IMG/VR virus record: IMGVR_UViG_2541047170_000006
Source of the DNA: a virus
Lineage: Duplodnaviria; Heunggongvirae; Uroviricota; Caudoviricetes
Direction: 5' to 3' (one strand)
DNA: 12,874 bases
A model generated the notes under the pieces. That model did not search any database. It was not told the DNA's origin and was given only the letters and a program-made list of their open reading frames with translations. Below, piece after piece: positions 1 through 12,874 of the stretch. How positions within the stretch are numbered: position 1 is the first letter of the stretch; each line of letters begins with the position of its first letter. A program made the position numbers and the translations under genes.

Positions 1-287
1 ACGCTGAAAAATTTCCTGAACCTTTCAGATCAAGAGCGATGTTAATTTGTTCAATCATCTGGTTTGGAAATCGGATGTTGCGGGTTGTTGTTCTGCGGGT
101 TCTGTTCTTTGATGACATAATGTTGCCCCATATTCAGTGTTGCTGATTTGTATTATCTGAAGTTGCTTTTACGTTAATTTGATGCAGATCAATTAATACG
201 ATACCTGCGTCATAATTGATTATTTGACGTGGTTTGATGGCGTAGATGCACGTTGTGACATGTAGATGATAATTATTATCATTTTGC

Positions 288-301
288 GGGTCCTTTCCGG
301 C
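288..301 (+). other. cosQ: cosQ-like element upstream of cosN (packaging termination signal)
   Basis: GGGTCCTTTCCGGC lies about 17-30 bp upstream of the cohesive-end 12-mer, where lambda carries cosQ; the surrounding 60 bp resembles the lambda right end as I recall it. Exact extent is uncertain. Confidence 0.4.
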
Positions 302-311
302 GATCCGACCG

Positions 312-335
312 GTTACGGGGCGGCGACCTCGCGGG
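312..335 (+). other. cosN: cosN, terminase nicking site containing the 12-nt cohesive-end sequence
   Basis: GGGCGGCGACCT at 318-329 is the lambda cohesive-end 12-mer, in the context GGTTACG / GGGCGGCGACCT / CGCGGG. Sequence to about 362 matches the lambda left end from memory. It sits about 190 bp upstream of the terminase small-subunit gene. Confidence 0.85.
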
Positions 336-364
336 TTTTCGCTATTTATGAAAATTTTCCGGGG

Positions 365-380
365 AAAATCATGTCGGTAC
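365..380 (+). repeat. R3-like repeat (AAAATCATGTCGGTAC)
   Basis: Core TCATGTCGG at 369-377, exactly 100 bp upstream of the same core in the R1-like copy (469-477). Confidence 0.55.
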
Positions 381-425
381 TTCTCGAACATAACTATTTG
401 TTTTTTCTAATATCGAATCCGTAAA

Positions 426-440
426 GGTCCGACATGAAAA
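426..440 (-). repeat. R2-like repeat, inverted orientation
   Basis: 426-439 (GGTCCGACATGAAA) is the perfect reverse complement of 467-480 (TTTCATGTCGGACC), a 14-bp inverted repeat with a 27-bp spacer. Confidence 0.55.
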
Positions 441-465
441 CGCCTGAAAAAGTCATTTTCGGGCA

Positions 466-480
466 CTTTCATGTCGGACC
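466..480 (+). repeat. R1-like repeat (CTTTCATGTCGGACC)
   Basis: Direct copy of the R3-like core and inverted partner of the R2-like copy; ends 24 bp before the Nu1 ATG. Confidence 0.55.
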
Positions 481-504
481 CTGTATTTGTTGTGAGACTG
501 TTTC

Positions 505-1024
505 ATGAAGGTTAATAAAAAGAAACTTGCCGAAATTTTCAACGTGGATCCGCGAACGATTGAACGCTGGCAGTCTCAGGGGCTCCCTTGCGTCTCCGGA
601 GGTGGTAAGGGCGTTGAATCTGTATTTGATACCGCCACGGCAATTCAGTGGTATGCGCAGAGGGAAGCTGATATCGAAAATGAAAAACTCCGTAAAGAGG
701 TTGAGGATTACAGGGCTGCCAGCGAGGCAGATCTCCAGCCTGGGACTATTGAGTACGAATGCCATCGACTTACGCGTGCGCAGGCTGACGCCCAGGAGCT
801 GAAGAATGCCAGAGACTCCGCAGAAGTGGTGGAAACCGCATTCTGTACTTTCGTGCTGTCACGGATCGCAGGTGAAATTGCCAGTATTCTCGACGGGATC
901 CCCCTGTCGGTGCAGCGGCGTTTTCCGGAACTGGAAAACCGACATGTTGATTTCCTGAAACGGGATATTATCAAAGCCATGAACAAAGCAGCCGCGCTGG
1001 ATGAACTGATACCGGGGTTGCTGA

Positions 1025-1050
<26 letters not shown>
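505..1050 (+). CDS. Nu1: Terminase small subunit (gpNu1-like)
   Basis: ORF of 181 aa, ATG at 505, stop at 1048-1050. From about residue 73 (…[14 protein letters not shown]… to …SEYIEQSG) it matches lambda gpNu1 as recalled. The N-terminal ~70 aa are homologous but clearly divergent ([22 protein letters not shown]…GGGKG, a winged-HTH-type DNA-binding domain). First gene after cos; overlaps A by 26 nt. Confidence 0.93.
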
Positions 1051-4731
<3,681 letters not shown>

Positions 4732-4751
<20 letters not shown>

Positions 4752-6051
4752 TCTCCCGCATATTGCCAGCATGGCTTTTAATGAGCCGCTGATGCTTGAA
4801 CCCGCCTATGCGCGGGTTTTCTTTTGTGCGCTTGCAGGCCAGCTTGGGATCAGCCGCCTGACGGATGCAGTATCCGGCGACAGCCTGACTGCCGGAGAGG
4901 CACCCGCGGCGCTGGCGTTATCCGGTGATGATGACGGACCACGACAGGCCCGGAGTTATCAGGTCATGAACGGCATCGCCGTGCTGCCGGTGTCCGGTAC
5001 GCTGGTCAGCCGGACGCGGGCGCTGCAGCCGTATTCGGGAATGACCGGTTACAACGGCATTATCGCCCGTCTGCAACAGGCTGCCAGCGATCCGATGGTG
5101 GACGGCATTCTGCTCGATATGGACACACCGGGCGGGATGGTGGCGGGAGCATTTGACTGTGCTGACATCATCGCCCGTGTGCGAGACATAAAACCGGTAT
5201 GGGCGCTGGCCAACGACATGAACTGCAGTGCAGGTCAGCTGCTTGCCAGCGCCGCCTCCCGGCGTCTGGTCACGCAGACCGCCCGGACAGGCTCCATCGG
5301 CGTCATGATGGCTCACAGTAATTACGGTGCTGCCCTGGAGAAACAGGGCGTGGAAATCACGCTGATTTACAGCGGCAGCCATAAGGTGGATGGCAACCCC
5401 TACAGCCATCTACCGGGTGATGTCCGGGAAACACTGCAGTCCCGGATGGATGCAACCCGCCGGATGTTTGCGCAGAAGGTGTCGGCATATACCGGCCTGT
5501 CCGTGCAGGCTGTGCTGGATACCGAGGCTGCAGTGTACAGCGGTCAGGAGGCCATTGATGCCGGACTGGCTGATGAACTTGTCAACAGCACCGATGCGAT
5601 CACCGTTATGCGTGATGCACTGGATGCACGTAAATCCCGTCTCTCAGGAGGGCGAATGACCAAAGAGACTCAATCAACAACTGTTTCAGCCACTGCTTCG
5701 CAGGCTGACGTTACTGGCGTGGTGCCAGCGACGGAGGGCGAAAACGCCAGCGCGGCGCAGCCGGACGTGAACGCGCAGATCACCGCTGCGGTTGCGGCAG
5801 AAAACAGCCGCATTATGGGGATCCTCAACTGTGAGGAGGCTCACGGACGCGAAGAACAGGCCCGCGTGCTGGCAGAAACCCCCGGTATGACCGTGGAAAC
5901 GGCCCGCCGCATTCTGGCCGCAGCACCACAGAGTGCACAGGCGCGCAGTGATACTGCGCTGGATCGTCTGATGCAGGGGGCACCGGCACCGCTGGCTGCA
6001 GGTAACCCGGCATCTGATGCCGTTAACGATTTGCTGAACACACCAGTGTAA
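4732..6051 (+). CDS. C: Prohead protease (gpC-like, ClpP/S49-type serine protease)
   Basis: GTG start at 4732 preceded by GGAGGAG (4721-4727); 439 aa (VTAELRNLPHIASMAFNEPLMLEPAYA…), matching lambda gpC in length and sequence as recalled. Overlaps the end of B by 20 nt. The 484-aa ORF from the upstream ATG at 4597 is rejected as the start. Confidence 0.9.
5446..6051 (+). CDS. Nu3: Scaffolding protein (gpNu3-like), nested in-frame in the 3' part of C
   Basis: In-frame ATG at 5446 (MDATRRMFAQKV…) shares reading frame and stop with C and gives 201 aa, exactly the lambda C/Nu3 nested arrangement. No strong SD is visible, so the call relies on homology to the lambda arrangement. Confidence 0.8.
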   Translation: MDATRRMFAQKVSAYTGLSVQAVLDTEAAVYSGQEAIDAGLADELVNSTDAITVMRDALDARKSRLSGGRMTKETQSTTVSATASQADVTGVVPATEGENASAAQPDVNAQITAAVAAENSRIMGILNCEEAHGREEQARVLAETPGMTVETARRILAAAPQSAQARSDTALDRLMQGAPAPLAAGNPASDAVNDLLNTPV

Positions 6052-6060
6052 GGGATGTTT

Positions 6061-6393
6061 ATGACGAGCAAAGAAACCTTTACCCATTACCAGCCGCTGG
6101 GCAACAGTGACCCGGCTCATACCGCAACCGCGCCCGGCGGATTGAGTGCGAAAGCGCCTGCAATGACCCCGCTGATGCTGGACACCTCCAGCCGTAAGCT
6201 GGTTGCGTGGGATGGCACCACCGACGGTGCTGCCGTTGGCATTCTTGCGGTTGCTGCTGACCAGACCAGCACCACGCTGACGTTCTACAAGTCCGGCACG
6301 TTCCGTTATGAGGATGTGCTCTGGCCGGAGGCTGCCAGCGACGAGACGAAAAAACGGACCGCGTTTGCCGGAACGGCAATCAGCATCGTTTAA
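6061..6393 (+). CDS. D: Head decoration protein (gpD-like)
   Basis: 110 aa from ATG 6061 ([27 protein letters not shown]…AISIV), with AAGGGA upstream and TAA at 6391-6393; matches lambda gpD as recalled. The ATG at 6055 would add only MF and is not preferred. Confidence 0.93.
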
Positions 6394-6410
6394 CCTGACC
6401 CTTCATCACT

Positions 6411-6436
6411 AAAGGCCGCCTGTGCGGCTTTTTTTA
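6411..6436 (+). terminator. Intrinsic-terminator-like hairpin in the D-E intergenic region
   Basis: AAAGGCCGCCTGTGCGGCTTTTTTT: GCCGC (6415-6419) pairs with GCGGC (6424-6428) over a CTGT loop, extended by A/U pairs, followed by a run of 7 T (6429-6435). On the sense strand of the late operon. Confidence 0.5.
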
Positions 6437-6448
6437 CGGGATTTTTTT

Positions 6449-7474
6449 ATGTCGATGTACACAACCGCCCAACTGCTGGCGGCAAATGAGCAGAAATTTA
6501 AGTTTGATCCGCTGTTTCTGCGTCTCTTTTTCCGTGAGAGCTATCCCTTCACCACGGAGAAAGTCTATCTCTCACAAATTCCGGGACTGGTAAACATGGC
6601 GCTGTACGTTTCGCCGATTGTTTCTGGTGAGGTTATCCGTTCCCGTGGCGGCTCCACCTCTGAATTTACGCCGGGATATGTCAAGCCGAAGCATGAAGTG
6701 AATCCGCAGATGACCCTGCGTCGCCTGCCGGATGAAGATCCGCAGAATCTGGCGGACCCGGCTTACCGCCGCCGTCGCATCATCATGCAGAACATGCGTG
6801 ACGAAGAGCTGGCCATTGCTCAGGTCGAAGAGATGCAGGCAGTTTCTGCCGTGCTCAAGGGCAAATACACCATGACCGGTGAAGCCTTCGATCCGGTTGA
6901 GGTGGATATGGGCCGCAGTGCGGCGAACAACATCACGCAGTCCGGCGGCACGGAGTGGAGCAAGCGTGACAAGTCCACGTATGACCCGACCGACGATATC
7001 GAAGCCTACGCGCTGAACGCCAGCGGCGTGGTGAATATCATCGTGTTTGACCCGAAAGGCTGGGCGCTGTTCCGTTCCTTCAAAGCCGTCAGGGAGAAGC
7101 TGGATACCCGTCGCGGCTCTCATTCCGAACTGGAGACAGCGGTAAAAGACCTGGGCAAAGCGGTGTCTTATAAGGGAATGTATGGCGATGTGGCCATCGT
7201 CGTGTATTCCGGACAGTACGTGGAAAACGGCGTCAAAAAGAACTTCCTGCCGGACAACACGATGGTGCTGGGGAACACTCAGGCACGCGGTCTGCGCACC
7301 TATGGCTGCATTCAGGATGCGGACGCACAGCGCGAAGGCATTAACGCCTCTGCCCGTTACCCGAAAAACTGGGTGACCACCGGCGATCCGGCGCGTGAGT
7401 TCACCATGATTCAGTCAGCACCGCTGATGCTGCTGGCTGACCCTGATGAGTTCGTGTCCGTACAACTGGCGTAA
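6449..7474 (+). CDS. E: Major capsid protein (gpE-like, HK97 fold)
   Basis: 341 aa from ATG 6449 (MSMYTTAQLLAANEQKFKFDPLFLRLFFRESYPF…EFVSVQLA), matching lambda gpE as recalled; the upstream ATG at 6422 lies inside the hairpin and T-run and is rejected. Confidence 0.95.
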   Translation: MSMYTTAQLLAANEQKFKFDPLFLRLFFRESYPFTTEKVYLSQIPGLVNMALYVSPIVSGEVIRSRGGSTSEFTPGYVKPKHEVNPQMTLRRLPDEDPQNLADPAYRRRRIIMQNMRDEELAIAQVEEMQAVSAVLKGKYTMTGEAFDPVEVDMGRSAANNITQSGGTEWSKRDKSTYDPTDDIEAYALNASGVVNIIVFDPKGWALFRSFKAVREKLDTRRGSHSELETAVKDLGKAVSYKGMYGDVAIVVYSGQYVENGVKKNFLPDNTMVLGNTQARGLRTYGCIQDADAQREGINASARYPKNWVTTGDPAREFTMIQSAPLMLLADPDEFVSVQLA

Positions 7475-7476
7475 TC

Positions 7477-7501
7477 ATGGCCCTTCGGGGCCATTGTTTT
7501 T
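7477..7501 (+). terminator. Stem-loop with UUCG-type tetraloop and downstream T-run, 3 nt after the E stop
   Basis: ATGGCCC (7477-7483), TTCG loop (7484-7487), GGGCCAT (7488-7494): a perfect 7-bp GC-rich stem, followed by TGTTTTT (7495-7501). Confidence 0.5.
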
Positions 7502-7515
7502 CTGTGGAGGAGTCC

Positions 7516-7914
7516 ATGACGAAAGATGAACTGATTGCCCGTCTCCGCTCGCTGGGTGAACAACTGAACCGTGATGTCAGCCTGACGGGGACGAAAGAAG
7601 AACTGGCGCTCCGTGTGGCAGAGCTGGAAGAGGAGCTTGATGACACGGATGAAACTGCCGGTCAGGACACCCCTCTCAGCCGGGAAAATGTGCTGACCGG
7701 ACATGAAAATGAGGTGGGATCAGCGCAGCCGGATACCGTGATTCTGGATACGTCTGAACTGGTCACGGTCGTGGCACTGGTGAAGCTGCATACTGATGCA
7801 CTTCACGTCACGCGGGATGAACCTGTGGCATTTGTGCTGCCGGGAACGGCGTTTCGTGTCTCTGCCGGTGTGGCAGCCGAAATGACAGAGCGCGGCCTGG
7901 CCAGAATGCAATAA
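7516..7914 (+). CDS. FI: DNA packaging accessory protein (gpFI-like)
   Basis: 132 aa from ATG 7516, preceded by GGAGGAG (7506-7512); MTKDELIARLRSLGEQLNRDVSLTGTKEELALRVAELEEELDD… matches lambda gpFI as recalled. Confidence 0.93.
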   Translation: MTKDELIARLRSLGEQLNRDVSLTGTKEELALRVAELEEELDDTDETAGQDTPLSRENVLTGHENEVGSAQPDTVILDTSELVTVVALVKLHTDALHVTRDEPVAFVLPGTAFRVSAGVAAEMTERGLARMQ

Positions 7915-7925
7915 CGGGAGGCGCT

Positions 7926-8279
7926 GTGGCTGATTTCGATAACCTGTTCGATGCTGCCATTGCCCGCGCCGATGAAACGATACGCGGGTACATGGGAACG
8001 TCAGCCACCATGACATCCGGTGAGCAGTCCGGCGCAGTAATACGTGGTGTTTTTGATGACCCTGAAAATATCAGCTATGCCGGACAGGGCGTGCGTGTTG
8101 AAGGCTCCAGCCCGTCCCTGTTTGTCCGGACTGATGATGTGCGGCAACTGCGGCGTGGAGACACGCTGACCATCGGTGAGGAAAACTTCTGGATAGACCG
8201 GATTTCGACGGATGATGGCGGAAGCTGTCATCTCTGGCTTGGGCGGGGCGTACCGCCTGCCGTTAACCGTCGTCGCTGA
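7926..8279 (+). CDS. FII: Head-tail joining protein (gpFII-like)
   Basis: 117 aa from GTG 7926, preceded by GGGAGG; sequence (ADFDNLFDAAIARADETIRGYMGT…) matches lambda gpFII as recalled. Confidence 0.92.
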   Translation: MADFDNLFDAAIARADETIRGYMGTSATMTSGEQSGAVIRGVFDDPENISYAGQGVRVEGSSPSLFVRTDDVRQLRRGDTLTIGEENFWIDRISTDDGGSCHLWLGRGVPPAVNRRR

Positions 8280-8290
8280 AGGGGGGATGT

Positions 8291-8869
8291 ATGGCCATAA
8301 AAGGTCTTGAGCAGGCCGTTGAAAACCTCAGTCGTATCAGCAAAACGGCGGTGCCTGGTGCGTCAGCAATGGCCATTAACCGCGTTGCTTCATCCGCGAT
8401 ATCGCAGTCGGCGTCACAGGTTGCCCGTGAGACAAGAGTACGCCGGAAACTGGTAAAGGAAAGGGCCAGGCTGAAAAGGGCCACGGTTAAAAATCCGCAG
8501 GCCAGAATCAAGGTTAACCGGGGGGATTTGCCCGTAATCAAGCTGGGTAACGCGCGGGTTGTCCTGTCCCGACGCAGGCGTCGTAAAAAGGGGCAGCGTT
8601 CATCCCTGAAAGGTGGCGGCAGCGTGCTTGTGGTGGGAAACCGTCGTATTCCCGGCGCGTTTATTCAGCAACTGAAAAATGGCCGGTGGCATGTCATGCA
8701 GCGTGTGGCCGGGAAAAACCGTTACCCCATTGATGTGGTGAAAATCCCGATGGCGGTGCCGCTGACCACGGCGTTTAAACAGAATATTGAGCGGATACGG
8801 CGTGAACGTCTTCCGAAAGAGCTGGGCTATGCGCTGCAGCATCAACTGAGAATGGTAATAAAGCGATGA
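8291..8869 (+). CDS. Z: Tail completion protein (gpZ-like)
   Basis: 192 aa from ATG 8291, preceded by GAAGGGGGG; basic protein matching lambda gpZ in position and length; ATGA overlap with U. Confidence 0.92.
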   Translation: MAIKGLEQAVENLSRISKTAVPGASAMAINRVASSAISQSASQVARETRVRRKLVKERARLKRATVKNPQARIKVNRGDLPVIKLGNARVVLSRRRRRKKGQRSSLKGGGSVLVVGNRRIPGAFIQQLKNGRWHVMQRVAGKNRYPIDVVKIPMAVPLTTAFKQNIERIRRERLPKELGYALQHQLRMVIKR

Positions 8870-9261
8870 AACATACTGAACTCCGTGCAGCCGTACTGGA
8901 TGCACTGGAGAAGCATGACACCGGGGCGACGTTTTTTGATGGTCGCCCCGCTGTTTTTGATGAGGCGGATTTTCCGGCAGTTGCCGTTTATCTCACCGGC
9001 GCTGAATACACGGGCGAAGAGCTGGACAGCGATACCTGGCAGGCGGAGCTGCATATCGAAGTTTTCCTGCCTGCTCAGGTGCCGGATTCAGAGCTGGATG
9101 CGTGGATGGAGTCCCGGATTTATCCGGTGATGAGCGATATCCCGGCACTATCAGATTTGATCACCAGTATGGTGGCCAGTGGCTATGACTACCGGCGCGA
9201 CGATGATGCGGGCCTGTGGAGTTCAGCCGATCTGACTTATGTCATTACCTATGAAATGTGA
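8866..9261 (+). CDS. U: Tail tube terminator protein (gpU-like)
   Basis: 131 aa ([54 protein letters not shown]…) matching lambda gpU as recalled. Confidence 0.93.
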
Positions 9262-9268
9262 GGACGAT

Positions 9269-10009
9269 ATGCCAACACCAAATCCTCTGGCACCGGTGAA
9301 AGGGGCCGGGACCACACTGTGGGTTTATAACGGGAACGGCGACCCATATGCAAACCCGCTTTCAGACAATGACTGGTCGCGTCTGGCAAAGGTTAAAGAC
9401 CTGACGCCCGGCGAACTGACCGCTGAGTCCTATGACGACAGTTATCTCGATGATGAAGATGCGGACTGGGCCGCGACCGGACAGGGGCAGAAATCCGCTG
9501 GAGATACCAGCTTCACGCTGGCGTGGATGCCCGGAGAGCAGGGGCAGCAGGCGCTGCTGGCGTGGTTTAATGAAGGTGATACCCGTGCCTATAAAATCCG
9601 CTTCCCGAACGGCACGGTCGATGTGTTCCGCGGCTGGGTCAGCAGTATCGGTAAGGCGGTGACGGCGAAGGAAGTGATCACCCGCACGGTGAAAGTCACC
9701 AACGTGGGACGTCCGTCGATGGCAGAAGATCGCAGCACGGTAACAGCGGCAACCGGCATGACCGTGACGCCTGCCAGCACCTCGGTGGTGAAAGGGCAGA
9801 GCACGACGCTGACCGTGGCATTCCAGCCGGAAGGCGCAACCGACAAGAGCTTCCGTGCGGTGTCTGCGGATAAAACAAAAGCCACCGTGTCGGTCAGTGG
9901 TATGACCATCACCGTGAAAGGTGTTGCTGCAGGCAAGGTCAACATTCCGGTCGTATCCGGTAATGGTGAGTTTGCTGCGGTTGCAGAAATCAACGTCACC
10001 GCCAGTTAA
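9269..10009 (+). CDS. V: Major tail tube protein (gpV-like) with C-terminal Ig-like domain
   Basis: 246 aa from ATG 9269, preceded by GAGGA; [31 protein letters not shown]… matches lambda gpV as recalled. C-terminal ~85 aa ([54 protein letters not shown]…) has the Big_2/Ig-like signature. The upstream ATG at 9239 is rejected. Confidence 0.94.
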
Positions 10010-10024
10010 TCCGGAGAATCAGCG

Positions 10025-10447
10025 ATGTTCCTGAAAACCGAATCATTTGAACATAACGGCGTGACCGTCACGCTTTCTGAACTGTCAGCCCTGCAGCGTA
10101 TTGAGCATCTCGCCCTGATGAAACGGCAGGCAGAACAGGCGGAGTCAGACAGCAACCGGAAGTTTACTGTGGAAGACGCCATCAGAACCGGCGCTTTTGT
10201 GGTGGCGATGTCCCTGTGGCATAACCATCCGAAGAAGACGCAGATGCCGTCCATGAATGAAGCCGTTAAACAGATTGAGCAGGAAGTGCTTACCACCTGG
10301 CCCGCGGAGGCAATTTCTCATGCTGAAAACGTGGTGTACCGGCTGTCCGGTATGTATGAGTTTGTGGTGAATGATGCCCCTGAACAGGCAGAGGACGCCG
10401 GGCCTGCAGAGCCTGTTTCTGCGGGAAAGTGTTCGACGGTGAGCTGA
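10025..10447 (+). CDS. G: Tail assembly chaperone (gpG-like)
   Basis: 140 aa from ATG 10025, preceded by GGAGAA; MFLKTESFEHNGVTVTLSELSALQRIEHLALMKRQAEQ… matches lambda gpG; ends 6 codons after the slippery site. Confidence 0.93.
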   Translation: MFLKTESFEHNGVTVTLSELSALQRIEHLALMKRQAEQAESDSNRKFTVEDAIRTGAFVVAMSLWHNHPKKTQMPSMNEAVKQIEQEVLTTWPAEAISHAENVVYRLSGMYEFVVNDAPEQAEDAGPAEPVSAGKCSTVS

Positions 10448-10863
10448 GTTTTGCCCTGAAACTGGCGCGCGAGATGGGGCGACCCGACTGGCGTGCCATG
10501 CTTGCCGGGATGTCATCCACGGAGTATGCCGACTGGCACCGCTTTTACAGTACCCATTATTTTCATGATGTTCTGCTGGATATGCACTTTTCCGGGCTGA
10601 CGTACACCGTGCTCAGCCTGTTTTTCAGCGATCCGGATATGCATCCGCTGGATTTCAGTCTGCTGAACCGGCGTGAGGCTGACGAAGAGCCTGAAGATGA
10701 TGTGCTGATGCAGAAAGCGGCAGGGCTTGCTGGAGGCGTTCGTTTTGGCCCGGACGGGAATGAAGTTATCCCCGCTTCCCCGGATGTGGCGGACATGACG
10801 GAGGATGACGTAATGCTGATGACAGTATCAGAAGGGATCGCAGGAGGAGTCCGGTATGGCTGA
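10025..10863 (+). CDS. T: Tail assembly chaperone G-T fusion made by programmed -1 ribosomal frameshift
   Basis: Slippery heptamer G_GGA_AAG at 10423-10429 in the G frame. The -1 frame is open from there to TGA at 10861-10863 (VFDGELSFALKLAREMGRPDWRAMLAGMSSTEYADWHRFY…), matching the lambda G/GT arrangement. Joined coordinates are 10025..10428 plus 10428..10863. Confidence 0.85.
10423..10429 (+). promoter_or_regulatory. -1 programmed ribosomal frameshift slippery site (GGGAAAG)
   Basis: X_XXY_YYZ heptamer in the zero frame of G, 16 nt before the G stop codon, with a long open -1 frame downstream. Confidence 0.85.
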
Positions 10864-12874
10864 ACCGGTAGGCGATCTGGTCGTTGATTTAAGTCTGGAT
10901 GCGGCCAGATTTGACGAGCAGATGGCCAGAGTCAGGCGTCATTTTTCCGGTACGGAAAGTGATGCGAAAAAAACAGCGGCAGTCGTTGAACAGTCGATGA
11001 GCCGGCAGGCGCTGGCTGCACAGAAAGCGGGAATTTCCGTCGGGCAGTATAAAGCCGCCATGCGTATGCTGCCTGCGCAGTTCACTGACGTGGCCACGCA
11101 GCTTGCAGGTGGGCAAAGTCCGTGGCTGATCCTGCTGCAACAGGGGGGGCAGGTGAAGGACTCCTTCGGCGGGATGATCCCCATGTTCAGGGGGCTTGCC
11201 GGTGCGATCACCCTGCCGATGGTGGGGGCCACCTCGCTGGCGGTGGCGACCGGTGCGCTGGCGTATGCCTGGTATCAGGGCAACTCAACCCTGTCCGATT
11301 TCAACAAAACGCTGGTCCTTTCCGGCAATCAGGCCGGGCTGACGGCAGATCGTATGCTGGTCCTGTCCAGAGCCGGGCAGGCGGCAGGGCTGACGTTTAA
11401 CCAGACCAGCGAGTCACTCAGCGCACTGGTTAAGGCGGGGGTAAGCGGTGAGGCTCAGATTGCGTCCATCAGCCAGAGTGTGGCGCGTTTCTCCTCTGCA
11501 TCAGGCGTGGAGGTGGACAAGGTCGCTGAAGCCTTCGGGAAGCTGACCACTGACCCGACGTCGGGGCTGACAGCGATGGCGCGCCAGTTCCATAACGTGA
11601 CGGCGGAGCAGATTGCGTATGTTGCTCAGTTGCAGCGTTCCGGCGAAGAAGCCGGGGCATTGCAGGCGGCGAACGAGGCCGCGACGAAAGGGTTTGATGA
11701 CCAGACCCGCCGCCTGAAAGAGAACATGGGCACGCTGGAAACCTGGGCAGACAGGACAGCACGGGCATTCAAATCCATGTGGGATGCGGTGCTGGATATT
11801 GGTCGTCCTGATACCGCGCAGGAGATGCTGATTAAGGCAGAGGCCGCGTTTAAGAAAGCGGACGATATCTGGAATCTGCGCAAGGATGATTATTTTGTTA
11901 ACGATGAAGCGCGGGCGCGTTACTGGGATGATCGTGAAAAGGCCCGTCTTGCGCTTGAAGCCGCCCGAAAGAAGGCTGAGCAGCAGAGTCAACAGGACAA
12001 AAATGCGCAGCAACAGAGCGATACCGAAGCGTCACGGCTGAAATATACCGAAGAGGCGCAGAAGGCTTACGAACGCCTGCAGACGCCGCTGGAGAAATAT
12101 ACCGCCCGTCAGGAAGAACTGAATAAGGCCCTGAAAGACGGGAAAATCCTGCGGGCGGATTACAACACGCTGATGGCGGCGGCGAAAAAGGATTATGAAT
12201 CGACGCTGAAAAAGCCGAAGTCGTCAGGAGTCAAAGTGTCAGCCGGTGAGCGTCAGGAAGACCAGGCGCATGCTGCCCTGCTGGCGCTTGAAACCGAGCT
12301 CAGGACGCTGGAAAAACACAGCGGTGCGAATGAGAAAATCAGCCAGCAGCGTCGCGATTTATGGAAAGCGGAAAATCAGTATGCGGTCCTGAAAGAGGCT
12401 GCCACGAAACGGCAGTTATCTGAGCAGGAAAAATTCCTGCTGGCGCATAAAGACGAGACGCTGGAGTACAAACGCCAGCTGGCTGAGCTGGGAGACAAAG
12501 TTGAACACCAGAAACGCCTGAATGAGCTGGCACAGCAGGCGGTGCGGTTTGAAGAGCAGCAGAGCGCGAAGCAGGCCGCCATCAGCGCAAAAGCCCGCGG
12601 TCTCACTGACCGTCAGGCGCAGCGGGAGTCTGAAGCGCAGCGTCTTCGGGACGTGTACGGTGATAATCCGGCTGCGCTGGCGAAGGCCACATCGGCACTG
12701 AAGAACACCTGGTCTGCGGAGGAGCAGCTTCGTGGAAGCTGGATGGCCGGGCTGAAGTCCGGCTGGGGCGAGTGGGCGGAAAGTGCGACGGACAGTTTTT
12801 CGCAGGTTAAAAGTGCTGCCACGCAGACCTTTGACGGTATTGCACAGAATATGGCGGCGATGCTGACCGGTGCA
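10856..12874 (+). CDS. H: Tail tape-measure protein (gpH-like), 3'-truncated by the window end
   Basis: ATG 10856 preceded by GGAGGAG (10842-10848) and overlapping the T stop by 8 nt. Open for 673 codons to the window edge (MAEPVGDLVVDLSLDAARFDEQMARVRRHFSGTESDAKK…), matching lambda gpH as recalled. The lambda protein is 853 aa, so about 180 codons lie beyond the window. Absent from the ORF track only because no stop is reached. Confidence 0.93.
   Translation, partial: MAEPVGDLVVDLSLDAARFDEQMARVRRHFSGTESDAKKTAAVVEQSMSRQALAAQKAGISVGQYKAAMRMLPAQFTDVATQLAGGQSPWLILLQQGGQVKDSFGGMIPMFRGLAGAITLPMVGATSLAVATGALAYAWYQGNSTLSDFNKTLVLSGNQAGLTADRMLVLSRAGQAAGLTFNQTSESLSALVKAGVSGEAQIASISQSVARFSSASGVEVDKVAEAFGKLTTDPTSGLTAMARQFHNVTAEQIAYVAQLQRSGEEAGALQAANEAATKGFDDQTRRLKENMGTLETWADRTARAFKSMWDAVLDIGRPDTAQEMLIKAEAAFKKADDIWNLRKDDYFVNDEARARYWDDREKARLALEAARKKAEQQSQQDKNAQQQSDTEASRLKYTEEAQKAYERLQTPLEKYTARQEELNKALKDGKILRADYNTLMAAAKKDYESTLKKPKSSGVKVSAGERQEDQAHAALLALETELRTLEKHSGANEKISQQRRDLWKAENQYAVLKEAATKRQLSEQEKFLLAHKDETLEYKRQLAELGDKVEHQKRLNELAQQAVRFEEQQSAKQAAISAKARGLTDRQAQRESEAQRLRDVYGDNPAALAKATSALKNTWSAEEQLRGSWMAGLKSGWGEWAESATDSFSQVKSAATQTFDGIAQNMAAMLTGA

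Follow-up and report, generated by a model that had tools for sequence, protein, structure and literature searches.

The window analysed here, a stretch of 12,874 nucleotides, very probably spans the region from cos to the tail genes in a lambda-like phage or prophage that carries a phage 21-type module, consisting of cosB and the DNA-binding domain of the small terminase subunit (TerS, the homologue of Nu1), in lambda-type surroundings. The mosaic of sequence types coincides with the packaging sites and with matched specificity residues, the genes are intact, and the same arrangement occurs naturally. On the basis of the sequence analysis, the window is predicted to combine the packaging specificity of phage 21 with the motor and capsid of lambda. 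The arrangement is proposed to have arisen by recombination between lambda-like genomes.

The original prediction had described a divergent block at 363-720, about 3 nt shorter than its lambda counterpart, within an otherwise lambda-identical backbone. A cohesive end of the lambda type follows after approximately 317 nt of the window, position 318 corresponding to bp 1 of lambda and 21. Pairwise alignment to lambda (PV340536) and to phage 21 confirmed that the block is unlike its flanks. The identity to lambda is 91.4 % over 1-362 and 100 % over 318-362, drops to about 59 % in the block (58.9 % over 363-720) as against 96.7 % in the flanks, and recovers to 97.0 % over 721-1050 and 96.4 % over 721-12870. 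In the 358 nt of the block, 145 mismatches to lambda were found, while approximately 13.4 would be expected at the flank rate (binomial tail ~1e-107), and the limits of the low-identity stretch were placed at 363-717 by a two-rate maximum-likelihood fit against lambda. The difference in length was also recovered, since TerS starts at cos bp 188 rather than at bp 191 as in lambda (J02459). As for the backbone, its lambda type was upheld but its identity was not: it is about 96-97 % identical to lambda and includes mosaic patches around 9200-9500 and 12200-12800.

The identity profile with phage 21 mirrors the one with lambda, amounting to 88 % over 318-698 and 64.5 % beyond, and it falls to about 60 % exactly where the identity to lambda returns. 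A sensitive blastn search with 363-720 against the cos and gene 1 sequences of phage 21 (X02501, M81255 and OL657228) gave 86.8 % identity with 97 % of the block covered; the alignment yielded 85.5 %, and the overall identity of the block to phage 21 is about 86-88 %. At the sites that discriminate between the two phages, the window is lambda-type up to 361, 21-type from 363 to 696, mixed from 697 to 719 and again lambda-type from 720. Divergence in situ without recombination is ruled out by these sharp edges and by the 86-92 % identity to 21. When positions 1-1500 were compared by megablast with 50,697 phage records, lambda and its relatives aligned in two pieces that lacked the middle, and IdasGreatGrand was the only phage to align straight through.

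The features of the cos region and of the two terminase genes are collected in Table 1. To the left of the block, the heptamer GGGTCCT, which we take to be cosQ, precedes the cohesive end. In the phage 21 record M81255, the position equivalent to cosQ carries the annotation 'R4'. Judged by the exact cohesive end and by its surroundings (318-362), which are fully identical to those of lambda, this part of cos is lambda-like, and in the I2 equivalent both informative sites (359 and 361) are lambda-type.

Table 1. Packaging sites and terminase genes in the window (positions are those of the whole stretch)
Feature	Position	Strand	Remarks
cosQ (GGGTCCT), presumed packaging-termination subsite	288..294	+	at -30 to -24 relative to the left cohesive end; lambda-type flank
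cosN cohesive end, 12 nt, GGGCGGCGACCT	318..329	+	exact match
I2 IHF site equivalent, lambda-type	347..361	+	mapped from I2 of M81255 (196-210); last segment before the left junction
Exchanged block	363..719	+	21-type cosB and TerS codons 1 to about 72
R3 box, AATCATGTCGGTACTT, 21-type	367..382	+	maps to the annotated R3 of 21, one mismatch
I1 IHF site	391..403	-	minus strand AAACAAATAGTTA, one mismatch to WATCAANNNNTTR
R2 box, inverted	424..439	-	minus strand TTTCATGTCGGACCTT, identical to R2 of 21
R1 box, TTTCATGTCGGACCCTG, 21-type	467..483	+	two mismatches to R1 of 21
Chimeric small terminase gene (homologue of Nu1 and gene 1)	505..1050	+	181 aa, as in lambda; Pfam Phage_Nu1
Large terminase gene A, lambda-type	1025..2950	+	641 aa, without internal stops

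In a complex cosB, three R boxes and an IHF site follow one another as R3-I1-R2-R1; R2 is inverted, and the IHF site separates R3 from R2 (PMC9026076). Exactly this arrangement, with the inverted R2, is found just upstream of the TerS start codon (ATG at 505), and the annotated R3, I1, R2 and R1 of phage 21 all map to the window with unchanged spacing. The three R boxes share the 21-type core TCATGTCGG. The pattern TCATGTCGGWMC has three matches in the 12.9-kb window, where 0.2 would be expected by chance, and all of them are R boxes (369-380 and 469-480 on the plus strand, 426-437 on the minus strand). R boxes of the lambda type (CGTTTCCKTTCT), which were searched for window-wide, are absent from 330-505; when two mismatches were allowed, two matches were obtained, both outside cosB and at chance level. 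In R3, the bases at bp 56 and bp 59 (window 373 and 376, respectively), which lie within the CATGTCGG core, are both G and thus 21-type, and at bp 54 an A replaces the G of the 21 box. When up to one mismatch to the IHF consensus was allowed, I1 was the sole match within 330-505, and it occupies the same place as the annotated I1 of phage 21.

Together with their flanks (426-480), R2 and R1 form a 25-nt inverted repeat that is 88 % complementary and has a 5-nt spacer, and an analogous R2/R1 palindrome is present in lambda. The segment between R2 and R1 (442-464) scores as a terminator-like hairpin on the plus strand, just upstream of the TerS start. Over positions 1-1100, the counts of promoters and terminators were at the level of shuffled sequence, the lone terminator-like hairpin being the one that belongs to this inverted repeat. 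An Rfam scan of the whole window at the gathering threshold returned no match.

The TerS protein belongs to the Phage_Nu1 family along its full length (PF07471, 5.4e-90; it scores 299.7 bits where the gathering cutoff is 30, and all 164 profile positions, 1-164, are covered), and the two parts of the protein are of different types. Codons 1-64, which encode the winged-HTH DNA-binding domain, are 21-type (89 % identity to gp1 of phage 21, 59 % to lambda Nu1), codons 65-72 are mixed, and codons 73-181, which encode the oligomerisation and TerL-binding part, are lambda-type (98 % to lambda, 50 % to 21); over the last 41 residues, the identity reaches 100 % with lambda and 32 % with 21. The recognition helix (residues 17-26) is identical to that of 21 gp1 and of PDB 7LWR and contains E20 and S24, as opposed to Q20 and E24 in lambda. 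Among the solved structures, the best match to TerS 1-54 is 7LWR, the sequence of which is that of 21 gp1 1-54, and the structures of the lambda DNA-binding domain (1J9I, 7LW0 and 6HN7) score below it. The six differences from 7LWR (from the window to 21: K7R, V30A, G32K, G34S, V37I and T45M) include four in or next to the wing, and the wing residue Lys35 is conserved. A literature search for a description of PDB 7LWR found none that was relevant. The right junction, at codons ~65-72, is located just beyond the 68-residue DNA-binding-domain construct of 1J9I. At codon 86 (760-762), the window and the Sakai prophage Sp11 encode Cys, and lambda, 21, IdasGreatGrand, nohA and PhiR5_1 encode Arg.

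These results also bear out what had been predicted for the content of the block, namely that the R repeats of cosB are unlike those of lambda and that the first ~71 codons of Nu1 encode a homologous but divergent winged-HTH domain, and they support the proposal that the two constitute one specificity module. The three boxes of cosB and the N-terminal domain are all 21-type, and both the layout and the contact residues match phage 21.

Lambda and 21 each package their own DNA more than 1000-fold better than DNA from the other of the two (PMC4669245). Recognition and discrimination have been attributed to TerS residues 20 and 24 and to bp 56 and 59 of R3, and Glu24 of lambda clashes with the G-C pair at bp 56 of the 21-type R3 (PMC4669245). 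As E20 and S24 in TerS are accompanied by G56 and G59 in R3, both halves of the recognition pair are 21-type in the window, which is what phage 21 specificity entails at the level of sequence; the features of lambda specificity are missing, as cosB contains no lambda R box and TerS has E20 and S24 rather than Q20 and E24. Following the model established for lambda and 21 (PMC9026076), IHF would bend cosB at I1, and a dimer of the 21-type TerS DNA-binding domain would dock on R3 and R2 across the bend. The recognition helix (E20, S24) would then read the CATGTCGG core (G56, G59), and the lambda-type C-terminus of TerS would hold the lambda-type TerL over cosN, where TerL would nick the DNA and start translocation. 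The combination of 21-type recognition with a lambda-type TerS C-terminus and TerL suggests that the phage should favour cos-21 DNA and discriminate against cos-lambda. That this particular element is viable and packages with 21 specificity is inferred.

With a single change in R3 and two changes in R1 relative to 21, the specificity may not be identical to that of 21. The module might even constitute a further specificity class, distinct from both lambda and 21, in which the wing and the R3 and R1 boxes have co-evolved away from 21. Such a scenario could accommodate the 6 of 54 residues at which the DNA-binding domain departs from that of 21 (four in the region of the wing), the A for G at bp 54 of R3 and the two changes in R1, as well as the third module of PhiR5_1, which shows that the family diversifies. 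It is nevertheless quite unlikely, given that the recognition helix (17-26), including E20 and S24, is the same as that of 21, that the core TCATGTCGG is retained in all three R boxes, that R2 is the R2 of 21, that Lys35 of the wing is kept and that the change in R3 brings this box closer to the consensus of R2 and R1 of 21. There is, similarly, a small chance that the 21-like module, which is 12-14 % diverged, has four substitutions in the wing region and altered flanks of R3 and R1, and is very common in O157:H7, is less than fully interchangeable with that of phage 21 in its packaging specificity. If this were true, the co-resident lambda-like prophages of enterohaemorrhagic E. coli (EHEC) would fall into more compatibility groups than the three documented ones (lambda, 21 and N15).

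Downstream of the block, the 21-type module of the window is followed by genes of the lambda type. The gene order is Nu1, A, W, B, C/Nu3, D, E, FI, FII, Z, U, V, G and T, running into H; every gene from Nu1 through G is intact, and the encoded proteins are 96-100 % identical to those of lambda, except for Nu1 (83 %). The large terminase subunit, TerL, shares 98.9 % identity with lambda gpA, as against 65.5 % with gp2 of 21, and the corresponding values for its N-terminal 48 residues are 96 % and 44 %. The C-terminus of TerS and the N-terminus of TerL are thus both lambda-type, as a lambda-type pairing of the two subunits would require at the level of sequence. Elsewhere, the sequence upstream of cosQ (1-284) is lambda-like, with approximately 90 % identity. 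Over 9200-9500, which covers the end of U and the start of V, the window is 96-100 % identical to phage 21 and 88-93 % to lambda; in the surrounding tail region, lambda and 21 hardly differ from each other. Within the tape-measure gene H (12200-12800), the identity to lambda and to 21 is 63-81 % in both cases and returns to 96 % by 12800, and this drop indicates that the gene holds an internal segment from a different lineage. The Sakai prophage Sp11 is 95.3 % identical to the window over 12239-12874.

The best matches of the whole window are prophages of E. coli O157:H7 (98.6 % identity over the full length). Positions 280-800, which span both junctions, are 100 % identical in many O157:H7 genomes, including the Sakai prophage Sp11, where the gene is ECs_2180, annotated as 'phage DNA packaging protein', and EDL933. 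Of 5426 complete E. coli genomes, 553 contain the cosB allele, counted as present at a coverage of at least 80 %, and most often there is one copy. A search with the right junction only led to an estimate of ~460-575 records at ~97 % identity or more, drawn from an evenly spaced ranking of the matches. IdasGreatGrand is the sole isolated phage that shares the chimera. In other 21-type phages (21, ev017, PhiR57_1, PhiR63_2, Lambda_4C10 and others), the match ends at window position 709, which indicates that these phages retain a 21-type C-terminus. A search of the available literature library for a published account of a natural lambda/21 chimeric TerS in O157 prophages found only laboratory hybrids and the comparison of cos and Nu1 by Asadulghani et al., which was confined to Sp4 and Sp14 (PMC2669165).

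This distribution bears on whether the chimera is real and whether it is functional. The chimera could in principle be artefactual, through mis-assembly between co-resident prophages that resemble one another or as a lambda-21 hybrid of laboratory origin, as O157 genomes contain several near-identical lambda-like prophages that can confuse assemblers and lambda-21 hybrids do exist in laboratories. This reading is effectively refuted by the two junctions, which recur identically in an isolated phage and in hundreds of genomes that were finished independently, and also by the distances involved, since a block that is 13 % diverged from phage 21 in a backbone that is ~4 % diverged from lambda would not be expected of a laboratory hybrid. 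Alternatively, the block could be a non-functional remnant in a decaying prophage, whose chimeric TerS no longer supports packaging. Many lambda-like prophages of O157:H7 are defective, and Asadulghani et al. observed neither excision nor replication nor packaging of Sp11, the block of which is identical (PMC2669165). The failure was put down to int, xis and repressor defects rather than to terminase (PMC2669165), but it means that the Sp11 copy gives no evidence of function. Decay of the block is very improbable in view of the intact Nu1, A, W, B, C, D, E, FI, FII, Z, U, V and G, reported at 96-100 % identity to lambda, of the matched pair formed by cosB and the DNA-binding domain, of the same chimera in the free-living isolate IdasGreatGrand and of the viability of the laboratory equivalent.

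The junctions of the 21-type module offer some indication of how the arrangement arose. The left junction coincides with the end of a ~45 bp cosN/I2 sequence that is common to lambda-type and 21-type phages. Other 21-like lineages, for example PhiR5_1, vary at the informative sites in 335-361, so the true left crossover may lie anywhere between cosN and 363. At the right junction, a 23-nt zone (697-719) matches neither lambda nor 21 consistently. This mixed zone, taken together with the 12-14 % divergence of the block from 21, suggests that the donor was a 21-like relative and not phage 21 itself. As a source of the mixed zone, nohA of the K-12 Qin prophage was rejected, being simply lambda-type, and PhiR5_1, which gave the best match to the junction zone (residues 65-72 at 88 %), was rejected as the donor, as it carries a separate, third type of module. 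IdasGreatGrand is unrelated to the window over 1-284, its similarity starting at window position 285, at cosQ, and cosQ/cosN is therefore itself a mosaic boundary.

Among the aligned sequences, a lambda-type N-terminal module is paired with a lambda-type C-terminal module in lambda and nohA, and a 21-type N-terminal module with a 21-type C-terminal module in phage 21 and a Nissle 1917 prophage; the combination of a 21-type N-terminal with a lambda-type C-terminal module is found in the window, Sp11 and IdasGreatGrand. A third pair is present in PhiR5_1, with the R core CATGTC(A/G), D20 and T24 in TerS and a C-terminus of its own. In every aligned case, the type of the R boxes and that of the recognition helix travel together, which supports the idea of a cassette. 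The combination seen in the window could be the older one and that of lambda the newer. The R-box cores of PhiR5_1 (PV340545, 854-1590) are CATGTCAG, CATGTCGT and the inverted GATGTCGT; residues 73-181 of its TerS are 60 % identical to the lambda-type residues of the window, and its module could represent an uncharacterised packaging specificity.

Packaging specificity determines which of the DNAs of co-resident prophages a terminase cuts and packages. In EHEC strains with many lambda-like prophages, it shapes both the cross-packaging and complementation of defective prophages and the wasteful initiation at foreign cos sites (PMC2669165; PMC4669245). The natural chimera shows that cosB and the TerS DNA-binding domain move as a cassette in the wild, and the right edge of this cassette, directly past the DNA-binding domain (codons ~65-72), is tighter than that of the ~600-bp laboratory hybrid. 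For O157 prophages, in which the gene is labelled just 'terminase small subunit', the assignment has annotation value. Roughly one complete E. coli genome in ten already carries this combination, and a laboratory version was built, and found to be viable, decades ago. The sequences became public years ago, and the underlying biology is textbook material in the field. The analysis confirms established biology and raises no new question.

Compared with the characterised systems, the window resembles phage 21 (M81255, X02501 and OL657228; PDB 7LWR) in the R3-I1-R2(inverted)-R1 layout and its spacing, the core TCATGTCGG, the R2 box and the recognition helix. It differs from this phage in the DNA of the block, which is ~12-14 % diverged, in six residues of TerS 1-54, and in the remainder of gp1, in gp2 and in the head genes, which are 21-type in phage 21 (50-65 % to lambda) and lambda-type in the window. 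Lambda (J02459; 1J9I, 7LW0 and 6HN7), in turn, shares with the window identical cosQ and cosN, TerS 73-181 (98 %), TerL (98.9 %) and head and tail proteins that are 96-100 % identical, whereas its CGTTTCC-type R boxes are absent from the cosB of the window, the identity over TerS 1-64 is 59 %, and its Q20/E24 are replaced by E20/S24. Two natural copies are alike in the junctions and diverge elsewhere. Sp11 is 100 % identical over window 280-800 with the same junctions, but 94.7 % identical over 1-10104 and different in the G/T/H region. IdasGreatGrand (PP925829) has the same junctions and a lambda-type head region (98.3 % identity over the block, 97.3 % over window 285-7498), although it is completely different upstream of cosQ.

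The window is a natural counterpart of the hybrid lambda 21hy51 constructed in the Feiss laboratory. In that phage, cosB of 21, along with the 5' end of its gene 1, was placed in lambda; the hybrid is viable and 21-specific, and its chimeric TerS-hy51 showed that TerL binding resides in the C-terminal half (PMC4669245, PMC9026076). In lambda 21hy51, approximately 600 bp of the left end is replaced, whereas the 21-type stretch of the window ends at ~bp 380-400 from the left end (TerS codons ~65-72); the donor was a diverged 21-like lineage, and the cosN/I2 segment of the window is lambda-type. Both share a TerS that joins the DNA-binding domain of 21 to the TerL-binding C-terminus of lambda.
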